Assembly (NCBI RefSeq): GCF_024521635.1
Contig: NW_026250409.1
Location: 1,302,001 to 1,366,000, forward strand
Length of the DNA stretch: 64,000 nt
Direction of reading: 5' to 3'
Source of the DNA: Tricharina praecox
Lineage: Eukaryota
Shown: positions 172-51,175 of the stretch, piece by piece
Layout: every line of letters starts with the position of its first letter
How positions within the stretch are numbered: the first letter of the stretch is position 1
Notes under the pieces: model-generated
What the model was told of the DNA's origin: nothing
The model's input: only the letters and a program-made list of their open reading frames with translations
Database searches by the model: none
Made by a program: the position numbers and the translations under genes

Positions 172-1804
172 TTACACACCATTGTAGTAATCGTTGTAAT
201 ATTTGACCCGCTGGTCAAATATGCAGCCGATGTCTTCTCCCTTGCGAACGATTCGGATCGTCTTCCAGGCATTGCCGTTTGGGAGTCTCTCCGGGCCCGT
301 ACCATTCTCCTTGCAGAGCAAGGTCTCAAGAGCCTGGAGGCTCATGACATTCTTGATGATCTTGTCAGGTACATCATCCGTATGCCATTCAGCAGTACCA
401 GGGGGGTAGCTGAAGTTGAGCGTGCCTTCTTCTTTGCCCATAGCCTCCAACTGCAAAAACCATTAGTCAAGTGCAATCGAAGACTAGAATGAATCACTTA
501 CGATGGCGTCTTTTCGAATGACCAGACCTCCCGTAAAGTGTCTGCGCATACTGAACACGTCGCCGATCTTGAAGACAGAGGTCTTGATCATCTCCGCGAG
601 CTTGATTTTGCTGCTCTCTCCAGCAATGGCTTCCGTGTATAGTTTCTGTTTCTCTCCCCAGAACACCTCAAAGTTCTCCTCCTTCCAGGAATCAAATTCA
701 CCAGCCAACCTCCTTTTTCTAGCATCGGCAGCCTTGGCGAGATACTCCGGCTCGTACTTGCCTTGACAAAGGTCTTCCTGGTAATTGCACACGCCCTCCA
801 TGAAAAAAGAGTCGTCGAACACGACCGGATTGATGATGGGCTTGCCATCAGGAACGGTGACATCGGAATTCGCCGGGTAGATTATGTCTTCAGCCGGAAG
901 AAGCGCGATGAGCGAATCGTACTCCTCGTCAGTCAAATTCTTGCGGTTGAGAACCTTAGGATTAAGGAGCCTCTGCATCGCACACATATCAGCAAACTTC
1001 TTTGAACGCGCAGTAAGAAGGAACACAAACCGAAAGATCCCCTAGAGCGAAAGGAGAGAATCGAGTAGCTAAGTTTTCCGGCTGCCACAACTCTTTCTTG
1101 GTGAGCTTCTTGGGCTGCGGCTCGGCGGTAGCCTTTTTCTGGGTCTTCGACTCGGCCTTCGCCTTACCCTTAGGTTTGGCCTTCGACTCGGCCTTAGCCT
1201 TGTCTTGGGCCTTACCCTTAGGTTCGGTCTTGGAATTCTTCGATTTGGGCCCGGTCTTAGAAACGACCGTAGCCTCGGGGCCAGGTGTAGCCTCAGCGGA
1301 AGTGTTGCAAGCGGCTACGCTCTTGGAAGGAGTACGAGCACGAACGCGACCTGAACGACGAACGGGAGAGTCTTCCTCCGCGAGTAGAGCGGCAAACACT
1401 TCGTCCGGAGTGGCGGTATGAGTCTTGACCCTCGCCGGAGTCTTCTTGGAAGTGACACGTTTCTTTCCAGCCTGATTCTTCTTCTTCGTAGCTCCTCTGC
1501 GACCCTTGGGATTGTAGCCGTCTAAATCATCTCCTTGATCATCTTCGTTCTTCCACTCCTTCTCGTCAACATTTCCACTGTCGTCCACCCCTCCACCCTT
1601 CTCAACGATCGCAAGTCTGGCGCGCTTGGGCGACGGCGCGGTCAGAGTGGTGTCGCCGACATCGATCATCTTGTCGTTGTCGTCGCTGCCGCTGTGCGTG
1701 GCGTTTTCTGCTGTGATCTTGTCGCCATGGTCGCTGGGAGAGGGAGAATGAGTGCGCTTGCGACTCTCCGCAGACATCGGTGCAGAGACTTGGAGCTCGT
1801 CCAT
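172..1804 (-). CDS. ASX-homology (ASXH/DEUBAD) domain chromatin protein, 3 exons (1804-1031, 972-502, 450-172)
   Basis: Three ORFs join in frame through GT-AG introns 1030-973 and 501-451, each with a branch-like motif. Lys/Glu-rich disordered N-terminus. Middle exon has an ASXH-like pattern (LT.EE...L..LLP ... FF...V.NYQEDL..G.Y.PE.L.KA..A...R..G.FDSWKE.NFE.FWG.KQK). Confidence 0.8.
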
Positions 1805-3569
1805 CGTCGTGTCCGGATGAGTCGCTGGTGATTATCGTAGTGGAGTACGACGTACGTTGTGAGACGTCGTGGGTGATCGTGGTGTGGTTTAAGGTGGATG
1901 TGGGAGGTAGCGGGGCAGTGATGGTAGATCTGGGGTAGGGAGACGCGACGCAACACTGTCCTACCGTGTCGGCTGCTCTAACGTGGGATTCGCTTAAAAC
2001 ACCGCGTGACGTCGTTCTATGAGCCTATATATGCACTCCAAGAATGCCAAGAAATGCGCTAATCTCGTTCTGTGTCCGTTGAGTCCTGAGGTTTAGAAAT
2101 ATTCCCGACAATGATGTCGCCAAAGCTTTCAATGTCTTGAGAACATTCCCATCTTTCCGTGTTAGGATTCCGACGAGGTATGTACGTGTACATGTGGACT
2201 CAGCCGCCTTCTTGTACGATCGCTCACAAGTTCACCCGCAGACTCACCCCGCAAGCACACTTCACTGGAAGCTCTAGATGGGAGCGCTCGCCATTTGAAG
2301 TCCTTTCTTGGTGCAGCGCGAGGGAAGAGTGCAGGCAAAAGAATATCATCAAATGACTCTATTTCAAATTCAAGCTCTTAACCGAGAAGCCATCGAGCTC
2401 GATACTCCAGCGCATTGGTGCCATCCGATAGTATCCGACTCGCTCTGTAGTCTGATATTTGCTATTGCCTCCAAGTGTCAGCCTCAAAGTTTGAAAGCTA
2501 TATTCAAAGTCATCGGCATGCCCTGGCTTCACGGCCATACAAGAAGAGGACTTACGCTTGGAAATGGCCACCAGATGAAAGCGTGGAAAACAGGAGAACA
2601 GGGGACGTCCACCGTTACGGCGGTGTAACCCCCAGCAGCTGATGGCCTTCCGTCGTGCAGCGTACCTTTACCGCAACTTCGGTGGATATATTTGGCCTCC
2701 TCCGGGATCTACATCTCCATCTCTTCAGATACTTTCCGTTCTCTTCTTCCGCTCGGGAGTCGGGTTTCAGCGACAATAGATCTAGCCCCTTGATACGCTT
2801 ACTGAGCCCAACTTCTCGCAGTGACCAAGATCCAAGTTGACAAAACTGCCTTGGATGAAGCAGTCGAATGGAAAGCTGAATAAGAGGAGCAAGGACTATG
2901 GTTGAACTGAACTGGACGAACTCGCGGAATAGACAATCGGCAACAGAATGGTGTTGGCCGATGGATAGTACACAGCTATGAAGCGAATCTACGGCTATGT
3001 TGCGTGCTCACGCCAACCATTACCACCACCGGGTGCCCCGAAGTGCTCTCGATGAGAGGCTCGTGATAGTGAATCATCTCTGTAGCCGATATGTATACGC
3101 AAAACGACAGATACACCGGTCGAATCGTCGGCCATTTCATCCGAATACACGCATCATCACACATAATGAGTGATTGCGTATGACACTGTAGGACTTGCAG
3201 TACATTCAGAGGGAGCGGCAGAAGTAAAACCAAAACCTCATCACTCGCTATAAAGCTAAGAGAGGGAGAGAGAACATCAATTTATTGCCGCATGCAGCCT
3301 TACTAGACTATGGTGATCACCAACTTCCCAACCTTTCCTGCCAGCTTCGTGGGGTCGAGAGAAAGCTCTACCACCACGGCCCGATGCTGCGCCGCTGCCT
3401 ACCAACCAATTTTACAAAGGAAAACCATGCTCACTTTCATTATCCAATCACTCAAAAAGACTCTGTTTCTGTTTGAGGATCGCGCCTTCGAGTCAGTGGT
3501 GATGATCTCATCCTGTGCGTGCCGTGATCTCATTATGGATGTGGCAATAGTTATCTATTCGAATTCTCT

Positions 3570-5560
3570 TATTCGGAGACAACTAGGAGACAACCTAGAG
3601 TTTACTTTGCCACGGTCGATTATGAGTGAGGAAAGCACGATCAGCGCGGGCTAGGAATCTTGGGAGAATCTGGATTTGCACGATTGCGCGAGTGATAGGT
3701 AGGGTATCTCATCTTTGCATCGGCAGTACGACCCCACCCCCCTACTTTCACACGCCCACTTGCAGCGCGCATACGGCTACACATACTTCTTACACAGATA
3801 CTTATTCGTGTAGGTAGCACATCCAAAGGAAACAAGTGACCACCCGGCGCCCCGCCCGCACGCCCGCACGCCTGGACGGGGGATGCGGAATGGGTTATCT
3901 CCCCATCTCCACGTACTCCGTCTCACTCGGCTCCAGCGCCCTCCACTACACCACTCAAATATGCACATCAAAACAGGTATCCAATCGATCCGCCAAGCAC
4001 GTATGTACGTTGGGAACGGTCCAGGACGAACGAGACATGCCACGAGACATGCCACGTCCACGTCTGGTGCGGGGCGCGGTGCATTTCTGCCGTCCGTCCG
4101 TCTCGTCCCGTCTCGTCTCGAATAAAGTGGCTGGCTGGAGATTAAAGTCCGTCGTCTAGAACGCCAGAGAGATCTTCACTTTTGGGCGGGTGGGAGGGTA
4201 TATAAGAACACGGATCGAACGACATCTTCGACAGCCGATCCGGTCCTCGAAGTCGAACAAACCCAAGCCGCCCCATAACATCAACATTAAAGCATAGACT
4301 CCACTGCATCTACCTATCTTAACTATGGATCTTATGCCATTTCCGTAGGTATGTTCCGTATATATCCATAATCCAACCAGGATGCTGATGCTATTGGCGG
4401 CCGCCATGATCCATCGGAGAGACAATTACGATTTGCGCCGATGCTCTGGAGTCTGGCGATCTATCACTCGTCCTGGGCTGGCTGGGGTTGCGATCAGCGC
4501 TGTTGCCGTGTTGGAAGTACCGAAATCCCGAACCCAAAACAAATGTTGTGACGATCTTCGTGTAGGGCTGGCTGCCTCGAGGGGGGCAGAGGGGCGGAGC
4601 TGGCCATTGCCATGGTTACCGCGACGTCGGATACACTCGGCCGAGCACGAGCAGGTCTCAGGCTTCAGGCAGTCAGTCGGTCAGTCCGTCAACCAGTCCA
4701 GCTCACCCGAAGATTGAATTGTCTAGGCCATGCACCTCCTCACCTCCTCCCCTCACCTTCTCCCCTCCTCCCCTCGCCTTAGACCTCATCTCCATAGCGA
4801 CGTTCGAACTGGCCCAGACCGAGACCCAGACCCCCACATCGGCGGTGGAAGCTCTCTCTCCCACCGAGCTGCAAGTCGCATGCATGCATTGCTATCCCAT
4901 TCCGTACGCAGATGCATGGGCACGGTTTCAGTGCCGCGGGCGCGTGGTTCCGTTGTTCCGACGCCGGTCCCCCACAGGCTGCGGGTTGCGGACTTGTCTT
5001 GTCTGGTGGATTCTCCGGGTCTCTCTTTCCAGCGTTCCAGCTTTGCAGCCTTTCAGGTTCCCTTCCCACTTCCCACTTCCCAGGCCCACATGTCTGTGTA
5101 GTTAGGTATGCCGAGGAGTAATTGGCGCGCATAGTTACCTAAGCAGGATATATCCCGTCTAGGTACCTATTGCATGATCGCACCCCGTAAGCCGTCAGTT
5201 GCAGCTCGCGTATCGTGCAATTTGACGGAAGGAATATCACTCACCTCCTCCCTTCCCTTCAAGTCCCTTGCATTCAAGTCCCGTCGCTGGTCGCCGGCAG
5301 ATGACGTTCCGTGCGTCCAAGTCCACTCGCTTCGTTGCGTTTCGAGTTTCTCCATGGTTGGTTGGTTGCTTACTTGCCCCCCCCCCGCTGTCTTCCTCCG
5401 AGCGAGCGGAGCAGCGACGACTCACGAGAGGTGATGGCCTACCTACTATACCTACCACTACTACTAGGAGAGGCACAAGGGAGGATGGAGATATAATACA
5501 ATAGAATTATCTATACATTTACCGTTACACACCTATCATTACTTCTACTTCTACTTTTCT
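3570..5560. repeat. ~2 kb non-coding duplicated segment; inverted, circularly permuted copy of 35511-37473
   Basis: Many shared blocks: 4111-4199 matches rc of ~36692-36780, 5192-5232 is identical to rc of 35661-35701, and 5388-5568 matches rc of 37473-37312. Flanked by TATTCGAATTCTCT (3556-3569) and TATTCGGATTCTCT (5561-5574). Confidence 0.9.
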
Positions 5561-5956
5561 TATTCGGATTCTCTCACCTAGGCACTCCATTTCCGTTGAT
5601 CTAAGCTGCTGCGGCTCTGCTCATGAGTACTCAACAACCTGGAAGGCTGGCTTTGTAGACAGTAGACAAGCTTTGATCACGACTCATGATTCATGGTGGA
5701 TCACCATCTCCCATGCTATCACTCGCACACATTCCAAGAGCTCCGTGCACATCAAGTCGCAAGCTCATCTCGAGCCACTATTCAACCTCAAGTACAACAC
5801 ACCACTCCCTTCAAAACGGCGCAGTACCTCCTTCCTGCTTCCTTTCCTCCTCCTCCACTTCCTCCTGCTCCACCAGCAGCGCACCTTCGTTGACTATACA
5901 AATTCAAAAACAACATCTACAAAAACAAACAACAGCCACAAAAACAAAAAACAAGC

Positions 5957-6539
5957 ATGAAGACCCGCCCCGAATAGTACTACCTCCACCCCATTCAACC
6001 CCTATAATCGTATACTAACCACCACCCACCTCTGCAGTACCCACCCCCCCTCAACCCGCGGCCACCGCGCGTCCCAGCCCCTGCCCCTACCGCTGCCCAA
6101 GCTGCCCAGCAGCGTCAGGAAGACCACCAAGAAGCCCATCCAGAAGCCCATCCAGAAGCCGGTCCCGAAGCGCACTCGCGTCGCGAAGCGCGTGCTCGCG
6201 CCTGCTCCTCCAAAGCTCAGGATCGAGATCCCAACCCACGCCCACCGCAGGATTACCCTGGAGCGTCGCGAGGATGGTATGGGGTTCGCTAGGACGGAGA
6301 TTACTATCGACGACTCAGACGAGGAGGAGGAGGAGGGGGTAGAGGTGGAGGAGGAGGCGAGAAGGCGCGCGGGTGAGTTGGCGGAGAAGGAGGCGGAGAG
6401 GTTGGAGGCGGAGAGGTTGGAGGCGGAGAGGTTGGAGGAGCTGCCGGAAGAGGAGAGGTGCTGGAAGACGGTTATGCACGAGGAGATGAGGAGGGAGGTG
6501 TGGATTGGGTTGAGGGAGGGGGTGAAGCACTACTATTAG
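5957..6539 (+). CDS. Small orphan protein (~170 aa), basic Pro/Lys-rich N-half and Glu-rich C-half; 2 exons (5957-5976, 6038-6539)
   Basis: ATG at 5957 follows a CA-rich leader. The 61-nt intron 5977-6037 (GTACTA...CTAAC...CAG) has matching phase (TA|T = Tyr) and joins the 6192-6539 ORF. Codons are strongly GC3-biased. Confidence 0.65.
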
Positions 6540-9500
6540 TAACTAGAGCAATAGAAGCCAACGATAAAGTTTGTGCTTGGATGCGCATTTCCAGGTGGCT
6601 TCTCAGGCTTACTTGTGTGGTTAGATACCGTTTTTAACATTACAGTCTTCTTAGTTCTACCTATCTGCGAACTTTTGCTTAGATGAATACCTCCATTATC
6701 CATATCCAGCTAAAATTGTACCCTTCGCATGTTCGTATTTTCAAATCCCCGATTAAGGCGCTTTTCTTTTCTCTTCTACCATTATTAATCGCATTCAACA
6801 TAGGTATCTACATTCTAGATATGACGCTTCCTCTTCCCTCGGCCCTCCACCTGTAGGCTGTAGTATACCTAGAGAGATTGAAGATAACAACGAACAAGAT
6901 AACAACGAACAAGCTGCCGCGCTCCTGAACCTACTGCTCAGCCTCCTTCCTTCCTCACGTCCACTGATGTCGCTACTCTATGGCCTCATGAGCGCGCTGA
7001 GCTGCGCTTGTTTTTTTTATTTTAATCATACTTGCGTTCAGCCTACCTAGGGAGGCTATGACTGGGCTGTACCATTCTTTCGCAAAAATCTGGTTTGGTA
7101 GTCGGATCCGAATGAGAAGTTGTGTCGCACACCCAGAGGCAGTCTTGACACTAGCGAGTGATATCTCATAGGGCGGTGACCACATGCAGCATTTGCCACT
7201 CCGACGCGCGGTATACCTATCAAAGCTCGCCGGTCATGGAGACTAGCGGGCTGTTCGTCGGTATGACGATGGCCTCCCGTTTCATCGTGCTGTATTCCTG
7301 AGTTACACCTGGGGCAGCTCAATGGTGCATCAGAATCCTGACTTGATTTCACGGTGGCTGTAGGCACCTACTCCACCACCAACCCAACAACCGGCTACGG
7401 TCTGCGGCAGTCACTCGCCCACTGGCTCTCACTCGGCTTCTGGTTAACGGCAATGCACACCTTCAGCAGGTAGTGCCGTACATATTTAGGTACGTACCTA
7501 GCTGCGCATAAGCAAAGCAAAGCAAAGAATAACCCCGCATGCTTCGATACTCCCCTGGGTGCACCAAAAACACGGTAGTTGTTCTCTCCGTATTCTCCGT
7601 GAAGTGATGGAGTCTTGAATCCACCCATCCTCCTATCCCTCCTTCCCTCCCTCGGAGTACTCGCCGCCAATTACTCCGAGACACCGGCAGGCGAATCCCA
7701 CCACCGGGCCGCGGCAGTGTGTATGTAGGTTGGTAGGCATGTACATACGTACGTAACGTGTTCTCTGCAGGCAGACAGGCAGGCAGGTAGGCAACGTACC
7801 TAAGACTTAAGTACTCTATCCGCCGCCACCGTCCGGCAGCTTACCTGTATGTACTCTATGCAGGGTGGAGAATCAGAACAAGCCCTTCTCTGCGCGCAAA
7901 GGAACCGCGCGTATCGTCACTAGAGTAGGTACCTAGAGTGCCCCTTGTCGGGCTGGATTATGTATGTGCATGAAGCACAAATCACTCCCCCTCCTCGGGC
8001 TCGTGGCCCGCACAGAACAGAACAGAACAGGGGGGAGCTCTGAGACATGCTAGAGTACCTAGAGTAGAGTACGATGACTAGAGTTCCTATCGTGGGTTGA
8101 TCAGAAAGACTGGCCTTTCGTTGTCTCGGTCAGCGGCAGCAGCAGTGTACGTACCTGGGTGCTCGAGATGAATCACACAATTGCGGATTACGCACGCATG
8201 TTAATCTGGATTTGTGGGCACTCATCACTGGCCGGCTGACTACCTAGCAGCGTTGTATGGGTATGTATCGAAGGTACTCTAGACATATCCGGGGATGCCC
8301 GGACGTTGGTGGCAACAGTGCTTGTTTCGGCAGGTTTATAGGGGCCGGATAGCAGCCTGACGTCTTTGAGCTGAGGCTGAGTGAAGGTGAAAGCGTGGGG
8401 GAACCTGCTAATCCAGAGTACCTACATACTCTGTCCGAGCGTCACCGGCTCCGAAATCAGCAGAGTATGTACGTGCACATAGCTAATCCGACGTTTGCAC
8501 AGATGTCTAGACCATATACCGTAGATAGTAGAAATCGGTATTCCTCCCGAGGTCTCAAGTCACTCCACAAACGCTTACTCGCACAAGCGCCAGCGCCAGC
8601 CCCCCAGCCCATCAGACGAATCCCTCTGCAGTGATCGATCGATCCGAATTATCCCCTCATCTCCGTTACGCGCTTATTGCGGCTGCCATGACATTTATCA
8701 GGGTCCCGGCGGGGCTCATGCCTCCGCCCCCTCCCTCCCACCCCCCCAGGGCCCCCACGCGTGGGGGGGCAGCTGGAACGTCCCGGAAATATCAGCGCAG
8801 ATCCACAGATGGTTTCCATCCGCCCACCCAGCGCGTCCCACGTGAGTCGGTGGGGGCCAAGAGTGCGCCGTGAGCCGCCAACCGGGCGGGTTGTTGCGGG
8901 ACGGCACGATTTGCGGGTTGGGTTTGGGGGGTTTTTTTGGGCTCTGCCGTGTTGAGGCTCCACTCCCCACCTCCCTCCCACGAGCAGACGGCAAAGTTGT
9001 AGTTAGTTATTGACATGTCATTTATGAGTACCTGGCTGGACACAGAGGAAGAATATAGGTCCGTCCGTTCGCGTTTGTATGGGTCATGTAGAGTATGTAC
9101 CGGTACCGGTACCTACTCCAGCCTCTAGGCCCTGACGCCGTTCCGGTTGGACTCGTCACTCACCCCTGCGGTCTGCCGCCGCTGTTAGAATACTTGTATC
9201 ATCCTGGCTGGTTGGATAGGTACTCATCCCTATTCAATAGGTATCGTCGAGATACATGGTATCTATGCAAATGGGGGATCTAAAGATCCCCCAAGACTCC
9301 CTACGATAGCTACAATTGCCCGACTCCATCGGCGTGAAAAACTGCGAATTTACGCCGGGAATTGATCAGCATTGACGGCTAGAACTCGGTCAGTCCGAAA
9401 ACTCGCCGTTCTAGCTCAAATGAATTTCCAATCCCTCCATCGGCTCGCTGTCATGTCATGTTGGTACGGACCATTGCCTCCGACAGAACAGGACAGAAAC

Positions 9501-14151: not shown

Positions 14152-17100
14152 AGCGCCGTCTTGTACTGTATGGGGATTTCGGAGGTATTCGGCGAAGTGA
14201 GCGACGGAGGGCAGAGGGCGGAGGACTGAGGGCGAAGGGCGGAAGTCGTGGGACGTGGGTCGTGGGTCGGTGTTTGCAGTGTGGTCGTGGTTTGGGGGGC
14301 GTATTTACTTGTTACCCTTTTCGGAGCGATCCTACTACTTAGAGTTCGTGCTAGCTAAAAGCGAACAATTGAGTTTTCTCGATGTGACGTGCTAGATGTG
14401 GCCAAGCGGGGGCGCGCGGGGAGAGAGACGAAAGTATGGAAGGGACCGAGGGAAGAAAAGTTTCTGGGAGGGTGATAGCGCTGGAGGCTCATCCCACGCG
14501 ACATCTGGAGGCATGGTTGAATGCCACACTTCCTCTCCCCCACACTATTTCATCCCAGGCCTCGCTAGGCAGCTTCACTGCCACACACTTATGCGCCACC
14601 CTCTTGACTGCCGAAGTGCACAGCACCGATCCCCACCACCACCACTACTACCAACTACCACCGCCTCCACCACACACCACCACCACCTCCACCACTGTTA
14701 CCACCACCACCACCACCACCATTACCACATTCAAAGGCTCCGGGAGATGGAACTGGCGCAGAATATTCGATTGCCGTGCGTGGAAGCAAAAGAAACTAGC
14801 ATTGCCATTGCACCAACCGTCCGCAGTACCAAGGCGACGCCAGAGAAGCTTTCCAGGTAGCAGCGTGAGCTGAGGCATCCAGGCAGGCAGGAAGGCAGGC
14901 AAACGTCTCGACCATCTCCTAGCTCACCTCAGGTGGTCGCCGGCATACTCTAGACCAGAGCATCCATATCGACCATCAGCGCGACCCCCAATGGCAGCTG
15001 TCGCTTGGAGCTGGCGGAGGAACGCCCTGAAAGAAAAAATGACTAGCAGAAACACAACTGCCGGTCTCGAAATTGCACTGCTTGCTAGGCTTGTCGATGA
15101 TGGTGATCTGCGCTCGGCGCGCGTGGGGCAAGGCTCGAAGACGTGGGGAGACGTCGGAACTTTCCAGCTGTCAACTGAACCCGATCGTTCTTCCGAACAT
15201 GGTACAGCTCGACTGTCCGGCATCCGTCTCATCATACAAAGTTTTAGGAGATATCTCCCCCGCCCCTTTCCCCCTCCTACCTCCGCTCCCCCTTTTACTC
15301 GCTGACAATTTTCTGCTACCGCTTCCTTGGTTCTCAACAAACCGCCGAAAAGGAGAGAGATGTGGATCCTGCCCAGCAAGTCCAATCAACCAGCCTATCT
15401 TTTTGGAGTCCCTCCCGCGGCCCAATATGTGTGCATTACCATCGTGTAGTGTACTTGCGGTAGTTGCTCGGTGGGACGTGCGTGCATACAATCGTCAACT
15501 CCCGAAATAAAGGGAAAAAATGTTGGCTTCAAACGCAACCGGGTTAGAGGGGGGGCAATTCCCAGTCTTCATGCGGATTCGTGGAACCTCCCGCGACGTC
15601 GGAATTGCGCAACGAAACGAAACGCCCAGCTATGTAATGTCGTTTTGTGTGCTCAGTGCGCTGCGCACATGGACGAGGAGCCACCGTCTCCTCGATTGCT
15701 AGAGCTGCATGGCTTAGCATCGGACAACATTGCATCTGGACCCTGAACAATTGCAATTGCAAGCTGCAATTGATCATGATCTGCCGGTCGGATTGCCCCG
15801 ACCCCCGGTGGAATTTCGAGCTGTCATACGACGAAAGCAGGGACCCCCCGAGAGCAAACTAAACGCCCAGAGACTTGAGACGAACGTCGTTGACGTCGTT
15901 CTCTCGTTCGCAAGGCTAAACTTGCACGCTTGGGGTTGCACACCATAAGCGCCTGAAAGCTGAATCATGGCACCTTCCCTATCCTAGACGTCAGGCTGGC
16001 AGCTGGCTGGGACCCTCTCCTTTTAATAATCGATCGACTCAACTGGTGAAAACCGGGAACAATGCTGCATGCGACGTCTCTCTGGCAATGGGTACCACAT
16101 GTCATGTACCCTCGAGTACCTATGCCTACCGACAACTACATAATGCTAGTTAGCGTCTGCTGCCGACGACACTCCTATGCCATGGCATCGGGTCCTGTCC
16201 CGCAATGTGGCACGCGCTGTTGTTTTGGCATGTTGCTTTCGGAAGGTCCAACAGACCTCGGCTCGCCCCGTTTGACAGCTCATTCGGCCGTCTCGTGGGC
16301 AAGTCAGCGTCAGTGACAGCGAGATTACATATGTGCCCTTTTTCGTGCGGTGGCAATTATTCGATTGTCGGACTTACATTCGCGGTATCGCCGGGACCGT
16401 CGGAGCAAACGGCATATGCAGAAGGCTTGCTGCTATTACCTGATGGTGTATATTCGCCTGTTAAGCGGACACCACAACTAACTACCATCTCGCCACTGCA
16501 CCACTGCATGCAACCAATTTTTCTGCCTACGGGCTGGCTGATTCTGATTCGGTGTTTGCATGACCAATAAGAGCTAACCTCCTGAGGGGATAGTGTTCGT
16601 GCATTTTCGGGCCTTGCCCTGCCGAGAAGGGCACACACAGCGCAAGGCTGCCGGTGGTGGTGGTGGTGGACCCCGTGCTCATATCTGGACAAGCTCGATG
16701 AAGCACGACCTGGACCGGCTCGAATACCGCTGGCCGCCGATATACATGCCGTACGCCTATCAATGCAGATGTGCAGAGACATGGTTCAGGATGAAGGGAT
16801 TTCCCACAGTCCACGGAGACGCCTCCTCGAGTGCTGCAGCAAATTTTCTTGATCTGGCAGCATCCCTTCAGTGTAAAATCTCGATCGTGATGCTACTCCG
16901 TCAGGGTATCGTATGTACCGGCTGGCATGTGCCTTGCAAGTTGCGCGCACCCAGAACAAGTCATCTGTTGCCACGAAAGCCAGAATCGGTTTGGATTCCT
17001 CTTTTTGAAGGCGGAGGAGAGAAGAGGGAGTTCCACGCAAATCACGATCGTACAAGCGATCCCAATGCTTCAATGTCAAAATCATATCTCGCTGGCCTTA

Positions 17101-17575
17101 CATACATGCGAGCAATCTCGGTGAGAAGTTTCACGGAGAAACCCAGTCGATGGAGATATTGGAAGTGTTCCGGGAAGTGGTGGGCCGCAGGCAGACGAGG
17201 GCTCCGGCCTCAGGTCAATCAGTGAGTGACGAGCAGATCTGGCTCGCTCACCGTGATTGGATGGAATATCTGAAACGTCAACTGCCGGAGTTCGGATTGG
17301 CGCGCCAGCTGCTCGAATGACCGTGGTCTGCAGGCATCATGGGCTACTCGGAATGGAGCGATGAAGCCCCCTCCCATCACAAGGCTGAAGCAGTCATTGA
17401 CTGACGGATTGACCGATGACCGCTTGCAAGCAAGCGCTTTGACCATAGCTTACTTGCAGCCTCAAGTAAATATGCCCCAATGCAATGCCATGTGCGATCT
17501 GCATTTCTGTGGTCTGATTTCGGATGCGTGCTTGCATCTCATTATCCTTGGGACGCGGATCATGCTGCTGGTACT

Positions 17576-17640
17576 GGTGGTGGTGGTGGTGGTGGTGGTG
17601 GTGGTTGTGGTTGTGGTGTTGTTGTTGTTGTTGCTGTTGT
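17576..17640. repeat. (GGT)n/(GTT)n microsatellite
   Basis: Triplet tandem repeat seen directly. Confidence 0.9.
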
Positions 17641-19589
17641 GTCGTGTCGGTTGTCGTGGTCAACTCTACATGTGGTTGCGGTGGTTGCTGGTGCTCCGTG
17701 GTTGTTCGAGAGAGAAGCGGACCGACTCAATCGCTGGCAGCCATACATAGGAGGAGACCCCATGCAGCCTATGCGGGCCATGCCATGCCATGCCATGCCA
17801 TGGGCATCTCACTCGTTTGCTTTCCTATCACCGACGCGAACGCCTTATTCAGCTCATCGCTCTGTTGTCCGCGGTTATCCGCCCCTCTCCTTCTCCCTCT
17901 CTCTGTCTCTCTCTGTTTCGGAGGTCGTCTCCCCTGCGATCTTGCCCGCGCGAGACACAATATAGATAGTTATTTAATTAAGTGACCTCGGCGAGTTCTC
18001 GTCTGGAGGACCGTGGGGCGTACTCGTATGTACAATACATATGATGTATGTATGTATCGAGTTAAGTGGCAGGATCACTGCTGTGAGTGAGTGACTACTG
18101 AGCAACAGTTCCAGCGGCTTGCATGACGGAGATCTGTCTATCTACTTATCGTCTAGTTACATAACTGACTAGAGTGTATTGTACATTATGTACGGTATGT
18201 ATGTTGTGCAGACCTCACATACAACCTACTCGAGAGCTGTCTAGCCGAGTTAGCCTTTTCGACGTACGTAAATATCTACCGTACATACGGCACATAGGTG
18301 GGTGGGTAGGTGGGTAGTTAACGTGTGCAGTGTGCAGATCAGTTACGGGGAGGGGAGGGGGGCACTCTGCTCTGCTCTGCTTGCTCTGCTATACACGCCA
18401 GCACGTGTATGTAGGCTACGGTAGTTACTCCAAAGGAGACCGGAGCACATACATACAGATGTACATTCATACATACATGTACACGACTCACACTCACGGC
18501 GCCGGCGAGGTATGATGTATGTAGGTGAGTTTGCGTAGCCCCCTTTCCCTTTCATTTCGGATGGGATGGGTCATGGACGTGGGGTCATGGGATCGGGCCC
18601 GATTTACGATTTTTTCTCTTTCGCAAAACCAATTCGTTTGAACTTTGAGGTGGGTGAGGGGCTAGGTAGGTAGAGTAGGTAGGCGGTGACTGAGTGAGTG
18701 ACGACGATGACGATGGTGGTTGTGGTGATGATGACGATGGTGGTGATTATGATGACGATGGAGCAACGGACTCTGAAAAGCCAATTGTGTACTCTAGAGT
18801 CTGGAGTTCCTGCATTTGACAGATCGATATCGATATCGATGGCTCTCTTTCTTACTCTGGCAGTAACGATCGTGATACAACTCAACTCTGACGACGTGAC
18901 CGATATTGATCTGATCTGACGACGACATCTTTGTTTGTTTTGTTTTGTTTTGTTTTGTTTACACCACGGAGCCAGCGATACATGTAAACTTAACTAATGG
19001 GCCAGCGTCACCGGCCATAACAAGTAGCTGGTACAAGCAGTAGTTAGTCACTGCGGCCGCGGTGACTAATTGTATGTATCAATCAATCAATCGCAGTCAC
19101 AGTCGCCCTGGGCAGTCTCCCTGAGCAGTGAGCAGTCGCCCCGGTACATACATGCTTCCTACGCACCTACCCACATAGTAACTCGCCAGAATTAGCAATT
19201 CCCTACTACGTAACTCGAACCCGAAAAATTGGTTCTGAAGGATCTGAAGGGCTCGGTTGTTGTATGTAGTCTGGTCGGTCTGGTCTGGTCTGGTCTGTCA
19301 ATCGCAACTGCCGGCTGGCCGCCGCCGGAGGTGCCAGAACTTACATACTACTAGTACGGTATACCCAGAAGGAAGCCCTTGAAGAAAAGGAAAAAAAGAA
19401 AGAAAAAAAAAAGCCGACTCGCTTGAGCACGCACTGCACTGATCACCGAACGGTAGGTACATACATCACATCATACATGGGAGTTCGTTCGGGCTGGCAG
19501 CTGGCAGGCAGCTGGCACGCAGGCAGCTGGTGCGCGCGCGCGAGGGCGCCACACACAACCATAGTTGACCGTAACCACGCGTTCGTCGT

Positions 19590-19632
19590 CCACCACCACC
19601 ACCACCACCACCACCACCACCACCACCACCAC
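19590..19632. repeat. (CAC)n microsatellite
   Basis: Triplet tandem repeat seen directly. Confidence 0.9.
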
Positions 19633-21153
19633 AGAAAATAAACCCGAGAGGGAAGGGGGGTGGATGGATGGGTGAAAGGGTGTGTGGATGTGTGGATGAC
19701 AGATCTGGTTGGGCAGACGGGCAGGCAAGGGATAACTAGAGTATGATGTATCTGGTGTTGTGGGATGCTACACTCCCACCCCAATCATCGGCTCCTTGCG
19801 GGTTTGCGGGTTTGTGAGCTTTTGTAGGGCGTTGTTTATGTACCGCATGCCGTCCCTCCGCTGCCTGCTGCTGCTGCTGCGCTGCACGCTGGGGATGAAC
19901 GAACCGCCCAAAGGGGAGCAGTAGGAGGAGAGGAGGGGTTGCCTGGAATTTGGAATTCCGCTGCTAGCTGCTCATATGCTCATAACTTACGCTCCGATGC
20001 TGCTAAGCTCGCCGTATGTATGTACCACCATCTCCATTCTACCTGCTACTCTACTGCCCAGGGGGGAGATGATGATGATGGGGGCGCGGGCAAGGCCCAT
20101 CTCACGAGAGTGTGTGCTGTGGACTGGACAGTGGAAGAGAGCCCGGGAGCCAAAGAGAAGGACCCGCAAACATAACAGGCGCAAGAACACATACACAGAC
20201 GATTTACCAACCGTCTAACTGCTGCGTACCTACCCTGCCCAAGTCCCGAGCTGAAAGCTCTGCTTGCTTGCTTGCAAGTTGCAAGGTCAATTCAACCTGA
20301 ATACCGGGACGGTCTGCGCTAAAAACAAATAATGGCAGACTGACAGACCATGCAATAATCTGTATGTGTGCAGAATGTCATGCCCCTGCCTTCGCCGGAC
20401 CAGGAGGGAGGGGGGTACGGTACGTGCTAACTAAGTTGTATCTAGGCACAGTGCACACCACACTGCAACTGCAACTGCACACTGCACACCCTCACTGGGG
20501 ACGCCAGGAATAAATAAATAATAATAATATTTCGGTCCATAAGGTCTAACAATTCGATATTATTATTATGGTTGTTTGAGCCCGTGCCTTATGATGGGAC
20601 CCTGGCTATCCCGGACTACCCAGCACTTTTTTTCGGAGTTTGGGTTCGCCTCATGCTGCCCGTATGGGCCCGCCCACACCTTCTACTACCCTCTACCCTT
20701 CACCACCCCCCCCCCCCCCCCCCCCAATCCTCCTTACTATCCCCACCCCCCCACCCCCCCTCCCCCCTTCCACATCGACGCGGTTCCCGAGCCTTGGGTT
20801 TACCTTCCGGGGAAGGGTGGGTGGGGTTCACTCCCATCATGTGTGCCTGCGCCTCCAGCCTAGATTAACATTGAGAAAGAGATAGGCCTGCCGGATGTAG
20901 GTACCGCCATCATCATCATCATCGTGGACGTCCTGTATAAATCCCAAGCATCCCCCCTCCAAACTTCGATGTCTTAGGCAGGCAGGCAGTCAAGAAGAAA
21001 GACGAATCGTTACTTCGTCGTCAACAGCATCTATCCGAAATACATACATATACCGCCTCTGAACAGTCAGTTCAGTTCAGTGGTCTTCGACGTCTCCCAA
21101 CTCCCTCAGTCAGTCCGCCAGTGATAGATCCATCGATATCCGCAAGTTGCAAC

Positions 21154-23446
21154 ATGGCCCGAAGCACAATGATGGCCATCCATAGCTCTCCCGAATACCC
21201 ACCATTTTCGTCCTCGGTCGAAAAGCCATTGGCATCGCTCGTGTCGTCTCTGCAACTCCTCGCTGAGGACCGTCGGCCGGCTCCCTACATAACGGCCATG
21301 GCTTATGCATCCAGCCTCACAACTGTGTTTATCCTGCTCGCCCTGATCATTGCCGTGCTCTATACCATCATCAAGGACTACCGGCGGCATGCAGTAATGT
21401 ATGCTTTTTTCCCCCACCCCACCCCCGCCGAACAACACTTGTCGTTTTGCTTTTTTATGCATTTCGACGTTTTGTTTGTTTTGCACATCTCTGACGCCGG
21501 TGCGATATGAAGGCCTCCAGGACCGTCACCGGTCCCTTTCGTTGGCAATAAATGGGATTTGCCGCCGTGCAAGCCGTGGTACAAGTTCAAACAGTGGACG
21601 GATATGTACGGTTCATTGGTAACCGTGTGGACCGGCCGACGGCCAACAATTGTCATTGGAGACCCAAAGGTTGCCTGCGACCTCCTGGACCGGCGGTCGG
21701 CAATATATTCCTCGAGGCCTCGCTTCGTTGTGATGGGTGAGTCTCCTACTGTTGTTGTTTTTTTCTTCTTTTCTTTCCAGAAGCCAAAAGGAAGCTCATG
21801 GCTTCCACGCGGCGGTTTGCGGTGGCGACGGTGGGTTGCACGCGCACCCACAATTCATGCGTGTGCCCTGTGGGTTGCGCATTTATTTATTTCATGGCTG
21901 ACCACACGAACATGCAGGCGAGCTATTTACCAATAACGACTCGCTGCTTACGATGCCCCACGGCGACAAGTGGCGGAAAACACGCAAGATATTCCACAGC
22001 GGCCTCTTGCGGAGAGCTTGCGAATCGTACAAGCCGATCCAGGAGGCCGAGTCGCAGCGGCTCCTGCGCGATCTCCTCCAGATGCCGCAGGACTTTGGAA
22101 GACATCTGGAGCGGTATGCGGCTTCGGTCATGGTGTGCGTCGCTTATGGTCGCCGTGTCGATGACTTGGACGATTCCATCGTCCAGCGCATATACGAACG
22201 TATGCAGTACATGTCGACGCTGAACGTGTGAGTACAACATCAATCTACTGCTTGTTCGTTTGCCCTATCCACCTGCCTTTGACTGCAGCACAAGGGTTGT
22301 CTCTTGAAAAAAAAAAATCCTTTCGTCCGCTTGTCCTCCCCCCCCCCCCCCCCCCCCCCCCCACCCCCCACAATCCGCACGCGGGCACCCGACGCTCGAG
22401 AACGTTTATAGGGGAAGCTCATTGACTGACCTGACGTCAGACCCGGTGCCTTTTGGGCTGAATCGTTTCCCCTGCTGAAGCTGGTTCCCGATTTTCTGGC
22501 CCCATGGAAGCGCGAGATCAAGCAGCGAGCCGCAGCGTCATCCAGACTTCTCCTGGGCCTCGCACAAGACGTGCGGCGACGCATGAACGAGGGCGACGCG
22601 CCCCCATCCTTCACCAAGAACCTCTGGGAGAAGTTTGACCAGAACCCCGGCGAGCTCACGGAGCGCGAGATTGCGTATGCCACCGGATCCCTTTTCGGCG
22701 CTGGCAGCGATACGTCGTCGTCCACACTCATGAGCTTTGTGCTCGCGATGACGTGCTTCCCGGAAGTGGCGGCAAAAGCACAGGAAGAGCTCGACCGCGT
22801 CGTGGGCAGAGATCGATCGCCTACTTGGAGCGACGAACCGAATCTACCGTACTGTGCTGCCATCATCAAGGAGACCCTGCGGTGGCGACCGGTAGCCGTC
22901 ATGGGCGGGACACCCCATGCCAGCATCAAGGACGATTACTACGACGGCCACTTCATTCCCGCCGGCACCACCATCCTTGGGAACCTCTGGGCGATCCATC
23001 ACAACAGCAAGTACTTTAAGGACTCGCACGAGTTTGTGCCCGAGCGATACCTCGAGGTGCAAGAAGGCACCGAGCCATACCCGCACCGTGATGGTCACTC
23101 CGCATTTGGATGGGTACGTTTAGCTCCTCCTCTTCTTCTTCCTCTTCCACGAATGATCATCGACTGACAATGCATACAGGGCCGGCGCATCTGCCCGGGC
23201 AAGCTGCTCGCCGAGAACAGTCTGTTCATCTCGATTACGCGCATACTGTGGGCGTTCAACATTTCAAAGCATGTGGACCCTGTGTCGGGCGCAGAGGAGG
23301 TGTACAACACATTTGCCTACACGGACGGCTTCAACTCGAAGCCGCAACCATTCCGCTGCGGCATTGCCGTGAGATCCGATCAGATCCGCGAGACGCTCGA
23401 ACGAGAGGCAAAACTGGGCGACAGGTTTCTCGAGAGATACAATTAG
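21154..23446 (+). CDS. Cytochrome P450 monooxygenase (OrdA/CYP64-like group); exons 21154 (or 21298)-21398, 21513-21736, 21918-22227, 22441-23113, 23180-23446
   Basis: N-terminal TM helix, PPGP hinge, W.K.R, I-helix GAGSDTS, ETLR (ExxR), PERY, heme motif FGW|GRRICPG split by the last intron. All four introns are GT-AG and in phase. Confidence 0.95.
22338..22362. repeat. Poly-C tract (25 nt) inside P450 intron 3
   Basis: Homopolymer run seen directly. Confidence 0.9.
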
Positions 23447-24802
23447 ACTCCCCTCGACTCGACTCGTCTCTCCAGCTGCGAAGCGCAGCGGATGGCTTGA
23501 TTGATTCATTCCGAGCGCTTTTCTTTTTTTGGTCTTTTTGGTTTTTGTTTTTACGGGTGGGATTTTTTGGGTTACTTCCTTCCTAACTATTATGGGCGGT
23601 GTTTTTTTTCTTCCTTTTTTCTTCCTTTCTCTTTTCACTTAACGGAGGCCATCTACCATCTTGCTTTTACTTTTTCCCATTTAGCGTTTTACTTCTTATT
23701 TTCTTTTTTTTTACTTCCCCTCACGGCTTTTTGGTGTATTTTACTACCCGTTTTTTATTGGCTGCTCGCTGTTTGGTTTGTGTCGGCATATGGGCATGTG
23801 TGTGTGTGTCTGTATGTGTGGCATGTGTGTATCTGTGTGGGTCTTACCGGTATTCTAGGGTTCGTTTCGGTTCGGTTGGGTTGGGGGTAATGTCGTTTTA
23901 CGGATTATTTCCTTTTGTGTCATTTTTGTGTCATTTGTTTTGTTTTTGTTTTTTTTTTCGGCGTACGGGGGCGGGGATTTTCTCTTTCAGTTTTTGTTTT
24001 GTTTTGGTTTGGATCGGGCTGCGCGCGCGCGGGGAATGGGATTTTGATTTTGGGTATTGGTTTGGGTTTTGGGTTTTGGGTGTCGGCAGTCAATGCAATG
24101 CGAATGCAACACATGGTACTCTACTCTACTTTGCTCTATCATACAAACAATCGATCGAGCGGTGCGGGGGGAGTGGGGGAGGGGGAGGGAGGTTCGTTCG
24201 GCTTTACTACTCTATTCCAATATACTCTACGTCTTCATGCGTTGCGTTGCCATCTTGCCATCTCCATCTCCGTGGCCATCTCCGTGTCTGTCTGTGTCCA
24301 GACTCCAGACCAGACTACAGACTCCAGACTCCGGAACTCGTATGTATTTATTTATGTACTTTGTACTCTATGTACCGGAATGTAGAGCATGTAGAGCATG
24401 TACCTAGAGTAATGTACCTTTCGTCCGGCCGACGGGCCATGCCTGTAGCTTTACAGTAGAGTAGGCAGGCTGTAGGCTGTCAGGTGTACCGTATAACTAC
24501 AGTACGTTATGGTGTATGGTGTATCCATGCCATGGCGTAACTACCTAGTTCGGCACCTACATAGGTACTCTACTCTGGTTATCGAGGAGTTCATCTGAAG
24601 TTGTGAGCGCGGATCGGAGGTGTAGGTGCGTACTGGTACTGGTACTGTGTACCCACCGGCCGCATGAGTTGAGTTGAGCTGAGTTGCGTTGGGTTCAGTT
24701 GGGTTCAGTTGGGTTGAGCTGGGTTGGAGTCTTGGAGTTTTAACTTTGGAGGTGCGGTACCACAGACATAGCCACAGCCGCTGGGGGAGTGAGAACCCCG
24801 CG

Positions 24803-24924
24803 GACAAGACATGACAAGACATGACAAGACAAGACATGACAAGACATGACAAGACAAGACATGACAAGACATGACAAGACAAGGCGAACCAGTGAGCCAA
24901 CCAGCCAACCAGCCAACCAGCCAA

Positions 24925-51142: not shown

Positions 51143-51175
<33 letters not shown>
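51143..51175. repeat. Poly-G tract (33 nt)
   Basis: Homopolymer run seen directly. Confidence 0.9.

Follow-up and report, generated by a model that had tools for sequence, protein, structure and literature searches.

A circularly permuted, inverted two-copy duplication of non-coding DNA in a filamentous fungus, and the case for a circular template

Colour sidedness in cattle reportedly arose at the KIT locus by serial translocation via circular intermediates, as inferred from a circularly permuted duplicated segment; this vertebrate case is said to involve hundreds of kilobases and to be recent and linked to a phenotype, unlike the duplication described here. For the human genome, Chicote et al. 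(2020, PMC7450558) describe circular-intermediate segmental duplication pairs (cSDPs), in which the derivative carries the sequence in the opposite order to the donor. In the model of eccDNA-mediated human duplication outlined by Takahashi and Innan (2020, PMC7188851), a fragment closes into a circle, which is then cut at a different point and goes back into the genome, the outcome being recognised by a permuted dot-plot. Among fungi, the account of region B in wine and other strains of Saccharomyces cerevisiae (bioRxiv 10.1101/2025.11.11.687820), which cites Galeote et al. 2011, describes copies that keep circular continuity and are opened at different points, and takes this as an eccDNA footprint.

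In a stretch of 64,000 nucleotides of Tricharina praecox, analysed as a whole and referred to here as the window, we confirm a two-copy, non-coding, old, permuted duplication with sharp boundaries. Copy 1 (3570-5560) and copy 2 (35511-37473) lie on opposite strands and share two blocks, each collinear between the copies, which stand in the order A-B in copy 1 and B-A in copy 2. In copy 1, which we take to be the derived copy, block A (3570-5387, plus strand) opens with TATTCGGA and matches the reverse complement of 37319-35511, while block B (5388-5560, plus strand) opens with CTGTCTTCCTC, matches the reverse complement of 37473-37320, and is joined to the end of block A at 5387/5388. In copy 2, the presumed donor, block A (35511-37319, minus strand) carries the homology to 3570-5387, and block B (37320-37473, minus strand) lies directly upstream of it in donor orientation. 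The fusion of the two outer ends of the donor can therefore be read in copy 1 at 5387/5388.

BLASTN analysis of 3000-6200 against the window returned three matches, all on the minus strand: 3684-5385 with 37159-35512 (74.7% over 1793 columns, E = 0), 3570-3661 with 37319-37217 (73.8%, E 1e-10) and, for block B, 5388-5504 with 37473-37347 (69.5% over 131 columns, E 4e-9). When the coordinates of these matches are summed, the totals are approximately 40,843-40,897 for block A and 42,851-42,861 for block B, and the matches form two anti-diagonals offset by approximately 1,960-1,970, which is the self-comparison pattern predicted by an earlier reading made from the DNA alone (the sequence-only reading). 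That reading had proposed that blocks A and B are homologous to the reverse complements of 37319-35511 and 37473-37320 in swapped order, and BLASTN bears this out, as does the local alignment of block B, whose score of 43 compares with 8.5 ± 1.3 (maximum 15) in 500 shuffles (z = 27). The proposed homology of block B over the whole of 5388-5560 is thus significant, but it falls short in extent: the last ~55 nt (5505-5560) align poorly to the donor, save for a terminal ...ACTTTT(C)T ahead of TATTCGGA. For block A, a global MAFFT alignment gave 1384 matches, 281 mismatches and 297 gap columns, i.e. 83% identity in aligned columns, with 42 indels between the copies. The unit measures 1963 nt in copy 2, in agreement with the ~1.96 kb piece proposed previously, and for copy 1 that length is corrected to 1991 nt.

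The number of copies was assessed from the contigs of four public runs (X1-X4), an approach in which copies elsewhere in the genome of less than 80% identity would escape detection. Depth over the element is at the level of the flank, and the one second variant found corresponds to copy 2. In run X1, depth ranges from 7.4 to 21 over the element and from 7.3 to 9.7 over the left flank, and the one alternative contig type seen has the letters of copy 2 at 14 of the 16 positions listed. As to the copy count, which the sequence-only reading had raised as a question, two copies are all that is detectable at an identity of at least 80% in the contigs of the four runs. An origin from an rDNA circle was dropped because the depth is single-copy.

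The same contigs bear on the possibility that the permutation is an assembly artefact, created by mis-joining reads from two diverged copies. The left junction is bridged by contigs of X1 (record 4, 3405-4137) and X3 (record 19, 3539-3857), and the fusion at 5387/5388 by contigs of X4 (record 30, 5198-5490) and X3 (record 22, 5362-5550). As X1 possibly stems from the very sample that yielded the window, it is not counted as independent support; against a mis-join stand the bridging contigs from runs other than the best-matching one, which span the left junction and the fusion and differ by 0.3-2%. What speaks for one is the right junction (5560/5561), which no contig among those listed bridges, the X3 records ending at 5550 and resuming at 5564. 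Copies that differ by 17% and by 42 indels are not confusable in assembly, and an artefact is hardly credible. The proposed fusion of the donor's outer ends at 5387/5388 holds, both by direct reading and in the bridging contigs. An empty-site allele was also sought in the four runs, and none of the 12 joints listed skips 3570-5560, a result that does not count as evidence that such an allele is absent.

Copy 1 lies upstream of the 5' end of an ASXH-domain gene that flanks the acceptor (484-1804, minus strand; Pfam PF13919, E 4e-19), and copy 2 lies just downstream of the 3' end of a D-isomer-specific 2-hydroxyacid dehydrogenase gene of the formate-dehydrogenase-like type (38152-38913, minus strand; Pfam PF02826, E 1e-50). 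In a metagenome scan with the flanking ASXH exon, 64 stretches fitted the pattern and one (L001) was confirmed. This relative is syntenic at the ASXH locus, with an anchored interval of ~6.0 kb as against ~9.9 kb in the window, and shows no trace of the element, but its intergenic DNA is too diverged to align, so no empty site is readable; its matches to the element are all of low complexity, the best (E 4e-4) falling on a CGTCT-type repeat. When metagenomes were scanned for a 22-nt stretch that copy 1 and copy 2 share without change, 0 matches were found.

The K2P distance between the copies is ~0.19. A RIP-mutated repeat is ruled out by the mismatches, which comprise 151 transitions and 130 transversions and show no C-to-T/G-to-A bias. 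Coding is likewise ruled out, since 12 of the 42 indels are multiples of three, 12 ungapped blocks reveal no codon periodicity of the mismatches, the reading frames of copy 1 and copy 2 are not in common, a Pfam search found no domain in any of the 15 ORFs of the element, and a homologue search with the longest of these (196 aa) found none. Scans of the window for tRNA and Rfam families gave 0 matches. A depth spike at ~3260-3400 does not correspond to a recognisable tRNA.

Copy 1 is flanked by a 14-bp direct repeat: TATTCGAATTCTCT on the left (3556-3569, plus strand), which was read directly and is probably the original target sequence, and TATTCGGATTCTCT on the right (5561-5574, plus strand), the first 8 nt of which are identical to the 8-mer at the donor's opening point. 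The latter is the TATTCGGA found by sequence match at the internal B/A boundary of the donor (37312-37319, minus strand), where the derived copy opens. Within the window, the TATTCGRATTCTCT pattern occurs only at 3556 and 5561, and TATTCGGA occurs at 3570, 5561 and 37319 (minus strand), in accordance with the earlier claim that the copy was opened at the donor's internal TATTCGGA. The 14-bp duplication with one mismatch claimed alongside it is real for copy 1 only: its two members agree at 13 of 14 positions, which was equalled in 2 of 2000 shuffles of ±30 nt around both insert edges, while at the edges of copy 2 no flanking direct repeat was found (best 9 of 14, equalled in 1950 of 2000 shuffles). 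Because the repeat is found at copy 1 and not at copy 2, copy 1 is taken as the derived copy, a polarity drawn from the flanking repeat and not from an outgroup.

Both acceptor junctions of copy 1 show microhomology. The short microhomology with the opening point noted in the sequence-only reading is present, but the junction homology is longer than was stated there, as a second register pairs 3558-3577 with 5549-5568 at 17 of 20 positions; moreover, the insert is readable as one unit plus 8 bp. At a fixed register, the chance that the repeat and the insert begin with the 8-mer of the donor's opening point is, as a rough estimate, ~4^-8, and this sharing favours the use of microhomology over a blind staggered cut. 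The sole mismatch of the two 14-mers falls inside the 8-mer, with the right-hand copy having the donor's G, which is weak evidence, since a divergence of 17% predicts ~2 mismatches per 14-mer. At the join of the end of A with the start of B (5387/5388), where copy divergence blurs the picture, no microhomology is discernible.

A target-site duplication of 14 bp would also be accounted for if a LINE-type reverse transcriptase had inserted a copy of an RNA that was circular or permuted, leaving a circRNA-derived pseudogene, the length range of repeats made by target-primed reverse transcription taking in 14 bp. Such an origin is disfavoured by the lack of splice signals and tail, as there is no GT after or AG before the joined donor ends on either strand and both insert ends lack a poly(A) or A-rich tail, and its probability is close to negligible.

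The ends of the element were examined for the features of mobile DNA. Neither TIR, LTR, ATIR nor terminal hairpins were found there, and the Pfam search of all 15 ORFs revealed no transposase, recombinase or Rep-Hel gene, as the sequence-only reading had held for TIRs, LTRs and a transposase. A non-autonomous element with a circular DNA form, be it Crypton-like with a tyrosine recombinase or Helitron-like, could nevertheless have been mobilised in trans and have integrated at a TATTCGRA core; the flanking direct repeat and the 8-bp core common to insert and target would suit such an element, and circles of fungal Helitrons are documented in the account of PMC5148889. We strongly doubt this explanation. 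Only two copies are seen at an identity of at least 80% in the four runs, they have different ends, whereas an element would re-open at its own, and copy 2 is without a flanking repeat. In addition to the lack of TIR, ATIR and terminal hairpins, the ends TATTCGGA.../...CTTTTCT are unlike the FoHeli termini given in PMC5148889 (TCAG...ATTTT or TGCCT...CTCCTGT). Simple recombination at the core would not duplicate the extra TTCTCT. Furthermore, Helitrons are not known to make a target-site duplication.

The flanks of copies 1 and 2 show no further homology to each other, and hence hold no tandem or LTR remnants. The tandem A-B-A-B array and the LTR element that the sequence-only reading had set against its own proposal accordingly find no support, and LTR truncation (B-A-B) and a tandem array were rejected because no remnants are present in the flanks of either copy. 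A tandem array might also have been transient: the donor would once have been B-A-B-A, an internal A-B would have been duplicated to the acceptor, and the donor would later have collapsed to B-A. This intermediate is topologically equivalent to a circle, tandems are readily collapsed by unequal crossing-over, and nothing in the sequence forbids it. It requires three events, however, leaves no second-unit remnants on either side of copy 2, and by itself offers no account of the 8-mer common to the acceptor repeat and the opening point; we regard it as improbable.

On balance, we lean towards one ancient event in which a non-coding segment of ~1.96 kb was duplicated, from 35511-37473 to an inverted position ~30 kb away, upstream of the ASXH-domain gene, by way of a topologically circular template that was most likely an extrachromosomal circle. 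The change from B-A to A-B, with microhomology or short-indel junctions, is the signature ascribed to circular intermediates in the accounts of PMC7450558 and PMC7188851, and is therefore counted in favour of a circle. The outer ends of the donor, which is intergenic and downstream of the dehydrogenase gene, would have joined with little or no homology to form the circle, the join being the fusion now at 5387/5388. A 3' end, ...TATTCGAATTCTCT, left at the acceptor by breakage or stalling may then have primed on the circle just ahead of its TATTCGGA, where the similarity would be short (TTCTCT of the acceptor with the TTTTCT-like end of block B). Synthesis would have proceeded through A, over the closure junction and through B, and would have overrun its own start by 8 nt, giving a second TATTCGGA. 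On return to the acceptor, this 8-mer would have paired with the acceptor's TATTCGAA, so that TTCTCT would be re-copied and an apparent 14-bp target-site duplication would result. No enzyme of the element's own would take part.

The data show a duplication that is permuted, sharply bounded, old, non-coding and present in two copies, with copy 1 derived, and they show its junction sequences; the circle itself and the synthesis-dependent route are inferred. We favour repair synthesis on a circular template because microhomology at both junctions and an insert of one unit plus 8 bp fit synthesis-dependent copying better than the pasting of a cut circle into a staggered break. The original proposal, that a circularised piece was re-integrated by microhomology, is partly supported: all of its topology (permutation, fusion, opening point and repeat) holds, and copy-synthesis is preferred to the pasting of a cut circle.

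A related route would dispense with the circle: in a replication-based process (MMBIR/FoSTeS), the nascent end would switch templates serially along the donor in its linear, chromosomal form and would pass from the acceptor to 37319, through A to 35511, back to 37473, through B and TATTCGGA, and then to the acceptor via the 8-nt microhomology. The microhomology at both acceptor junctions is consistent with this route, as are the inverted orientation and the distance of just 30 kb on the same chromosome, and the account of PMC7450558 treats integration as a replicative interaction and has MMBIR/FoSTeS among its keywords. Indeed, a linear donor with one extra template switch gives an identical product, which sequence alone does not separate from that of copying a circle. 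That extra switch is nonetheless one more than the circle model requires, and the second donor stretch must stop exactly at the start of the first, leaving no gap and overlapping it by the 8-mer at most, although a microhomology-guided exit partly accounts for this. The switch from the end of A to the start of B is also without visible microhomology, though divergence blurs this point. Template switching on a linear donor appears unlikely, if far from negligible.

Amid sequence that is otherwise near-unalignable, islands of 90-97% identity emerge from the identity profile of the two copies (coordinates of copy 1, plus strand). The first (4108-4227, 90-95%), also evident in the alignment, ends in TATATAAG at 4199-4206, a sequence not retained in copy 2; the others lie at 4552-4670 (92-97%, with no excess RNA structure), at 4846-4905 (~90%) and, at the end of block A, at 5287-5385 (~90%). 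A structured RNA in these islands was rejected, all 10 of 10 folds giving z values between -0.92 and +1.60. In run X3, which is a few percent diverged, the element has 18 differences in 1071 nt and the flank 44 in 1061 nt (Fisher p = 7e-4), a comparison in which paralogous or foreign DNA may be the source of the flank pieces. On the element, X4 contigs span 4248-4831, starting ~40 nt past TATATAAG, and 5198-5490, and are a lead rather than evidence of expression, since the assignment of X4 to RNA is a guess. Island identity, the contrast between element and flank in X3 and the X4 contigs are leads, none of which amounts to proof, to a further reading: the 2-kb unit might be a non-coding module with a function, one that travels, or formerly travelled, in the form of a DNA circle, that integrates by recombination at the TATTCGRA core and that inserts a TATA-type promoter of its own where two genes have their divergent promoter region, with both copies since kept under constraint. 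We consider this distinctly improbable.

If copying from a circular template is the true explanation, the locus would provide a small natural fungal example of circle-templated duplication with acceptor junctions read to the base, in which microhomology longer than in the human cases and an insert of one unit plus 8 bp would point to copy-synthesis and not to cut-and-paste. It would also illustrate how non-coding DNA, possibly regulatory, can land between two divergently oriented genes. The number of such footprints in fungal genomes could be obtained by scanning for duplicates that are permuted and present in two copies.

No new category is created by this locus, as the signature and the model are already in print for humans and yeast. 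The sequence-only reading had remarked that circle-mediated duplication is known from yeasts and vertebrates, and its signature is indeed described in the accounts of PMC7450558, PMC7188851 and bioRxiv 10.1101/2025.11.11.687820. A literature search, judged by titles, found no base-resolved case in a filamentous fungus. Of the fungal systems, the non-canonical Helitrons of Fusarium oxysporum form circles with joined ends, but PMC5148889 presents them as elements of many copies, with defined termini, asymmetric TIRs, hairpins and Rep-Hel genes, and the present element showed none of these features. Region B is closer, being fungal and consisting of copies of circular continuity with differing opening points; by the preprint's account (bioRxiv 10.1101/2025.11.11.687820), however, it is ~17 kb long, carries genes, was acquired horizontally and exists in multiple copies, ten variants being known among strains, whereas the present case is one old event in native non-coding DNA.

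The human cSDPs, as characterised in PMC7450558, resemble the present case in that the outer ends of the donor are fused inside the derivative, the junctions carry microhomology or short indels, and long homology and transposon features are lacking; integration is proposed there to be replicative, as is preferred here. Those pairs are large, from primates and polarised by outgroup genomes, while the present case is 2 kb, non-coding, fungal, intrachromosomal at 30 kb, inverted and without outgroup polarisation. It also has microhomology of 7-8 of 8 nt, as against 1-2 bp in the pairs described in PMC7450558, and a 14-bp acceptor duplication. Finally, both the model and the permuted dot-plot signature set out in PMC7188851 are the same as in the present case; the three cases given in that account are ~20-130 kb long with 95-97% identity, whereas the duplication described here is 2 kb long at ~83% identity, with both acceptor junctions resolved to the base.

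BLASTN comparison of 3000-6200 with the whole window aligned 3684-5385 with 37159-35512 (E=0), 3570-3661 with 37319-37217 (E 1e-10) and 5388-5504 with 37473-37347 (E 4e-9), all on the minus strand, and the coordinate sums of these matches fall on two anti-diagonals ~1,960 apart, the pattern that the sequence-only reading had predicted for a self-comparison. The repeat finder likewise returned a chain of inverted matches (3887-5385 versus 35512-36989). In a global alignment of block A between copy 1 (3570-5387) and copy 2 (37319-35511), 1384 columns match, 281 mismatch and 297 contain gaps. The similarity of block B (5388-5560 and 37473-37320), which that reading had considered open to refutation, is significant (z = 27 against 500 shuffles); its last ~55 nt align poorly, except for a T-rich end before TATTCGGA. 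Together, these matches and block alignments reveal the order A-B at 3570-5560 and B-A on the opposite strand at 37473-35511. The outer ends of the donor are joined inside copy 1 at 5387/5388, and copy 1 is opened at TATTCGGA, internal to the donor (37319-37312), so that the blocks, the fusion and the opening point all lie where they had been placed from the sequence.

The flanks of the two copies differ. A direct repeat of 13/14 lies at the edges of copy 1, a level reached within +/-30 nt in only 2/2000 shuffles, which bears out the proposed 14-bp flanking duplication with one mismatch; the mismatch falls within the first 8 nt of the repeat, and the right-hand copy carries the donor's G. TATTCGRATTCTCT occurs in the 64 kb window at 3556 and 5561 only. 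At the edges of copy 2, in contrast, the best direct repeat is 9/14, equalled in 1950/2000 shuffles. This difference points to copy 1 as the derived copy that was inserted, with copy 2 as its likely source. The repeat finder detected a second register of homology at the junctions (3558-3577 versus 5549-5568, 17/20). Furthermore, the acceptor sequence ...TTCGAATTCTCT is similar to ...TTCTACTTTTCT, in which block B ends, and TATTCGGA follows both, which indicates microhomology at both acceptor junctions.

Permuted copies would not arise from a transposon, since such an element is opened again at its own termini. A circRNA retrocopy was rejected, as neither strand has GT/AG at the joined ends and the insert lacks an A-rich tail. 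A FoHeli-type Helitron was rejected as well, its termini (PMC5148889) not matching the ends of the insert. With these ruled out, the template would have been circular or have behaved as circular. The acceptor repeat starts with the same 8-mer as the insert, and this 8-mer also marks where the donor was opened. Had the acceptor been cut blindly with staggered ends, the 8-mer would have to coincide by chance (~4^-8 by our own estimate). A simple crossover at the 8-mer would leave the extra TTCTCT unduplicated. The junction anatomy is best explained by synthesis on a template: a 3' end at the acceptor, ...TTCTCT, would prime at the TTTTCT-like end of B, TATTCGGA-A would be copied, the closure junction crossed and B copied, after which synthesis would overrun its own start by 8 nt and return to the acceptor through pairing of TATTCGGA with the acceptor's TATTCGAA. 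Such synthesis would also account for the position of the single 14-mer mismatch, a weak point at 17% divergence. The sequence-only reading had envisaged a circularised ~1.96 kb piece re-integrated ~30 kb away by microhomology; the permuted topology and the junction microhomology stand, whereas other templates would give the same product as the circle. A circle is the simplest option for this template and, judging from the footprint, somewhat more probable than otherwise. A linear donor with one extra template switch would leave an identical product, and we consider it rather unlikely. The same product would also arise from a collapsed tandem at the donor, which seems improbable; when 670-740 nt of all four flanks was compared by sensitive BLAST, nothing was shared with the other copy, neither a second unit (tandem remnant) nor a second B (LTR-like B-A-B), which gives no support to the concern that both copies are fragments of a larger tandem A-B-A-B repeat or LTR element.

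The 2-kb unit is non-coding, as judged from indel lengths (a multiple of three in 12/42 between the copies), the lack of codon phase among mismatches in 12 ungapped blocks, and ORFs that copy 1 and copy 2 do not hold in common. None of the 15 element ORFs searched against Pfam gave a match, and among 600 candidates the longest (196 aa) had no homologue at E <= 1e-3. The unit showed neither TIRs nor LTRs, in agreement with the earlier observation that these and a transposase are lacking, and it has no terminal hairpins; tRNA and Rfam family scans of the window gave no match. The substitutions between copies (151 transitions, 130 transversions) carry no RIP signature, and RIP was rejected; the K2P distance of ~0.19 implies that the duplication event is old. 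Conservation between the copies is a mosaic, with islands at 4108-4227, 4552-4670, 4846-4905 and 5287-5385 being 90-97% identical and other stretches 43-68%. The islands fold no better than shuffles (z -0.92 to +1.60 in 10/10 folds). A 39-nt patch identical in both copies (5191-5229) forms an imperfect hairpin (CCGTCAGTTGCA ... TGCAATTTGACGG) that is not unusually stable (z -0.7 and -0.9), and has no match in the metagenome contigs. Between strains, the element differs at 18/1071 positions versus 44/1061 in the flanks (p = 7e-4), with the caveat that the pieces of flank could come from paralogues or foreign DNA, and contigs of X4, a public sequencing run only guessed to be RNA, begin ~40 nt after TATATAAG at 4199-4206. 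The islands, the low element divergence and these contigs are leads towards the boldest reading, in which the unit would be a non-coding module that has a function, is carried on a circle and contains a short core for recombination; we regard this reading as highly improbable.

Sampled words of 2400-6700 were recovered at 90% in one public run and at 17-44% in three more. Contigs of four runs (X1-X4) were aligned to 1500-7600 at a likeness of at least 80%. Depth in X1 was 7.4-21.3 over the element versus 7.3-9.7 on the left flank, and each conserved island had exactly one alternative contig per run. Among the alternative letters listed within the element, 14/16 are the copy-2 letter; the other two comprise a letter adjoining a gap in the alignment and a letter peculiar to X3. 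Depth and a single alternative contig type matching copy 2 thus indicate two copies and no family at this identity (>=80%). The left junction is crossed by X1 record 4 (3405-4137, 0 differences) and X3 record 19 (3539-3857), and the A/B fusion by X4 record 30 (5198-5490, 1 difference) and X3 record 22 (5362-5550). Among the X1-X4 contigs listed, none crosses the right junction (5560/5561), and no joint skips the insert as an empty allele would. X1 is possibly the window's own source sample; the insert is also present in X2 and X3, which differ by 1-5%.

A metagenome scan with a conserved 22-mer gave no match, and one with the ASXH exon retrieved a single syntenic contig, L001 (73% protein identity), of a related organism. 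It is anchored at 256-982 (window 11764-11094) and 6995-7958 (window 1171-200), and the interval between anchors, ~6.0 kb versus ~9.9 kb in the window, is ~3.9 kb shorter. L001 holds no trace of the element, and its intergenic DNA does not align at all; its shorter interval is compatible with insertion in the window's lineage, but, with unalignable intergenic DNA, does not represent an empty site.

Domains encoded by the long ORFs of the window are ASXH, GH3 C-terminal, N1221/DUF3402 (Far11/STRIP-type), epimerase and 2-hydroxyacid-dehydrogenase. An X4 contig leaves out the 64 nt of 2176-2239, which have GT..AG ends and lie upstream of the start codon (ATG at 1804) in the minus-strand ASXH-domain gene; this is likely a 5'-UTR intron of that gene and suggests that X4 is RNA. 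The domains and the GT..AG interval suggest eukaryotic DNA, most likely that of a filamentous fungus. Immediately beyond the insert, on its downstream side, a + strand gene probably occupies 5800-7320; the insert would thus lie between two divergently oriented genes. This stretch includes a Glu-rich ORF (6192-6539, +) with an EAERL-type repeat and no Pfam match, and X4 contigs at 6831-7317. The (GAG)n coding microsatellite at 6318-6357 draws contigs of many organisms in 4/4 runs (depth 173-1605), which is a low-complexity effect. Depth spikes sharply just upstream of the insertion site, where 3259-3400 reaches 319x in X1 versus ~8x around it. Contigs that carry this sequence (X1 n=61, X2 n=35, X3 n=17, X4 n=11) have loose ends, located before 3259/3266 and after 3313. 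Single-copy within the window and without a tRNA call, it resembles a dispersed repeat of short length (SINE- or MITE-like) or else a short sequence of wide conservation. Elsewhere in the window are very long homopolymers (C20-C26 and G32; 20706-20725, 22340-22365, 51144-51175), some of them inverted relative to one another at a distance of 29 kb (I14/I17), a tandem array with a 10/15-nt unit of GACAAGACAT-type (24793-24892) with a weaker relative at 27643-27692 (D4), and, within 5 kb, long (CAC)n/(GTG)n arrays on both strands (14624-14743, 17547-17657, 19566-19641; D1/D3, I8-I25), which could encode repeats rich in His or Val, or could be simple microsatellites.

At the level of sequence, the copy 1/copy 2 pair has the features of the circular-intermediate duplication class, with a circle proposed from the footprint and the polarity assigned from the direct repeat flanking copy 1. 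Cattle KIT is reportedly a further case for comparison. A title-level literature search found no such duplication in a filamentous fungus. Published accounts describe human duplication pairs in which A-B/C-D is changed to B-A/D-C, with junction microhomology of 1-2 bp or indels of 1-27 bp, and propose circularisation followed by replicative interaction with the acceptor (PMC7450558); three human eccDNA-type duplications of ~20-130 kb (PMC7188851); and, in yeast, ten variants of Region B that keep circular continuity (preprint 10.1101/2025.11.11.687820, citing Galeote et al. 2011). The present case differs from these in its scale (2 kb) and host, in the length of its microhomology, and in the 14-bp duplication of its acceptor.
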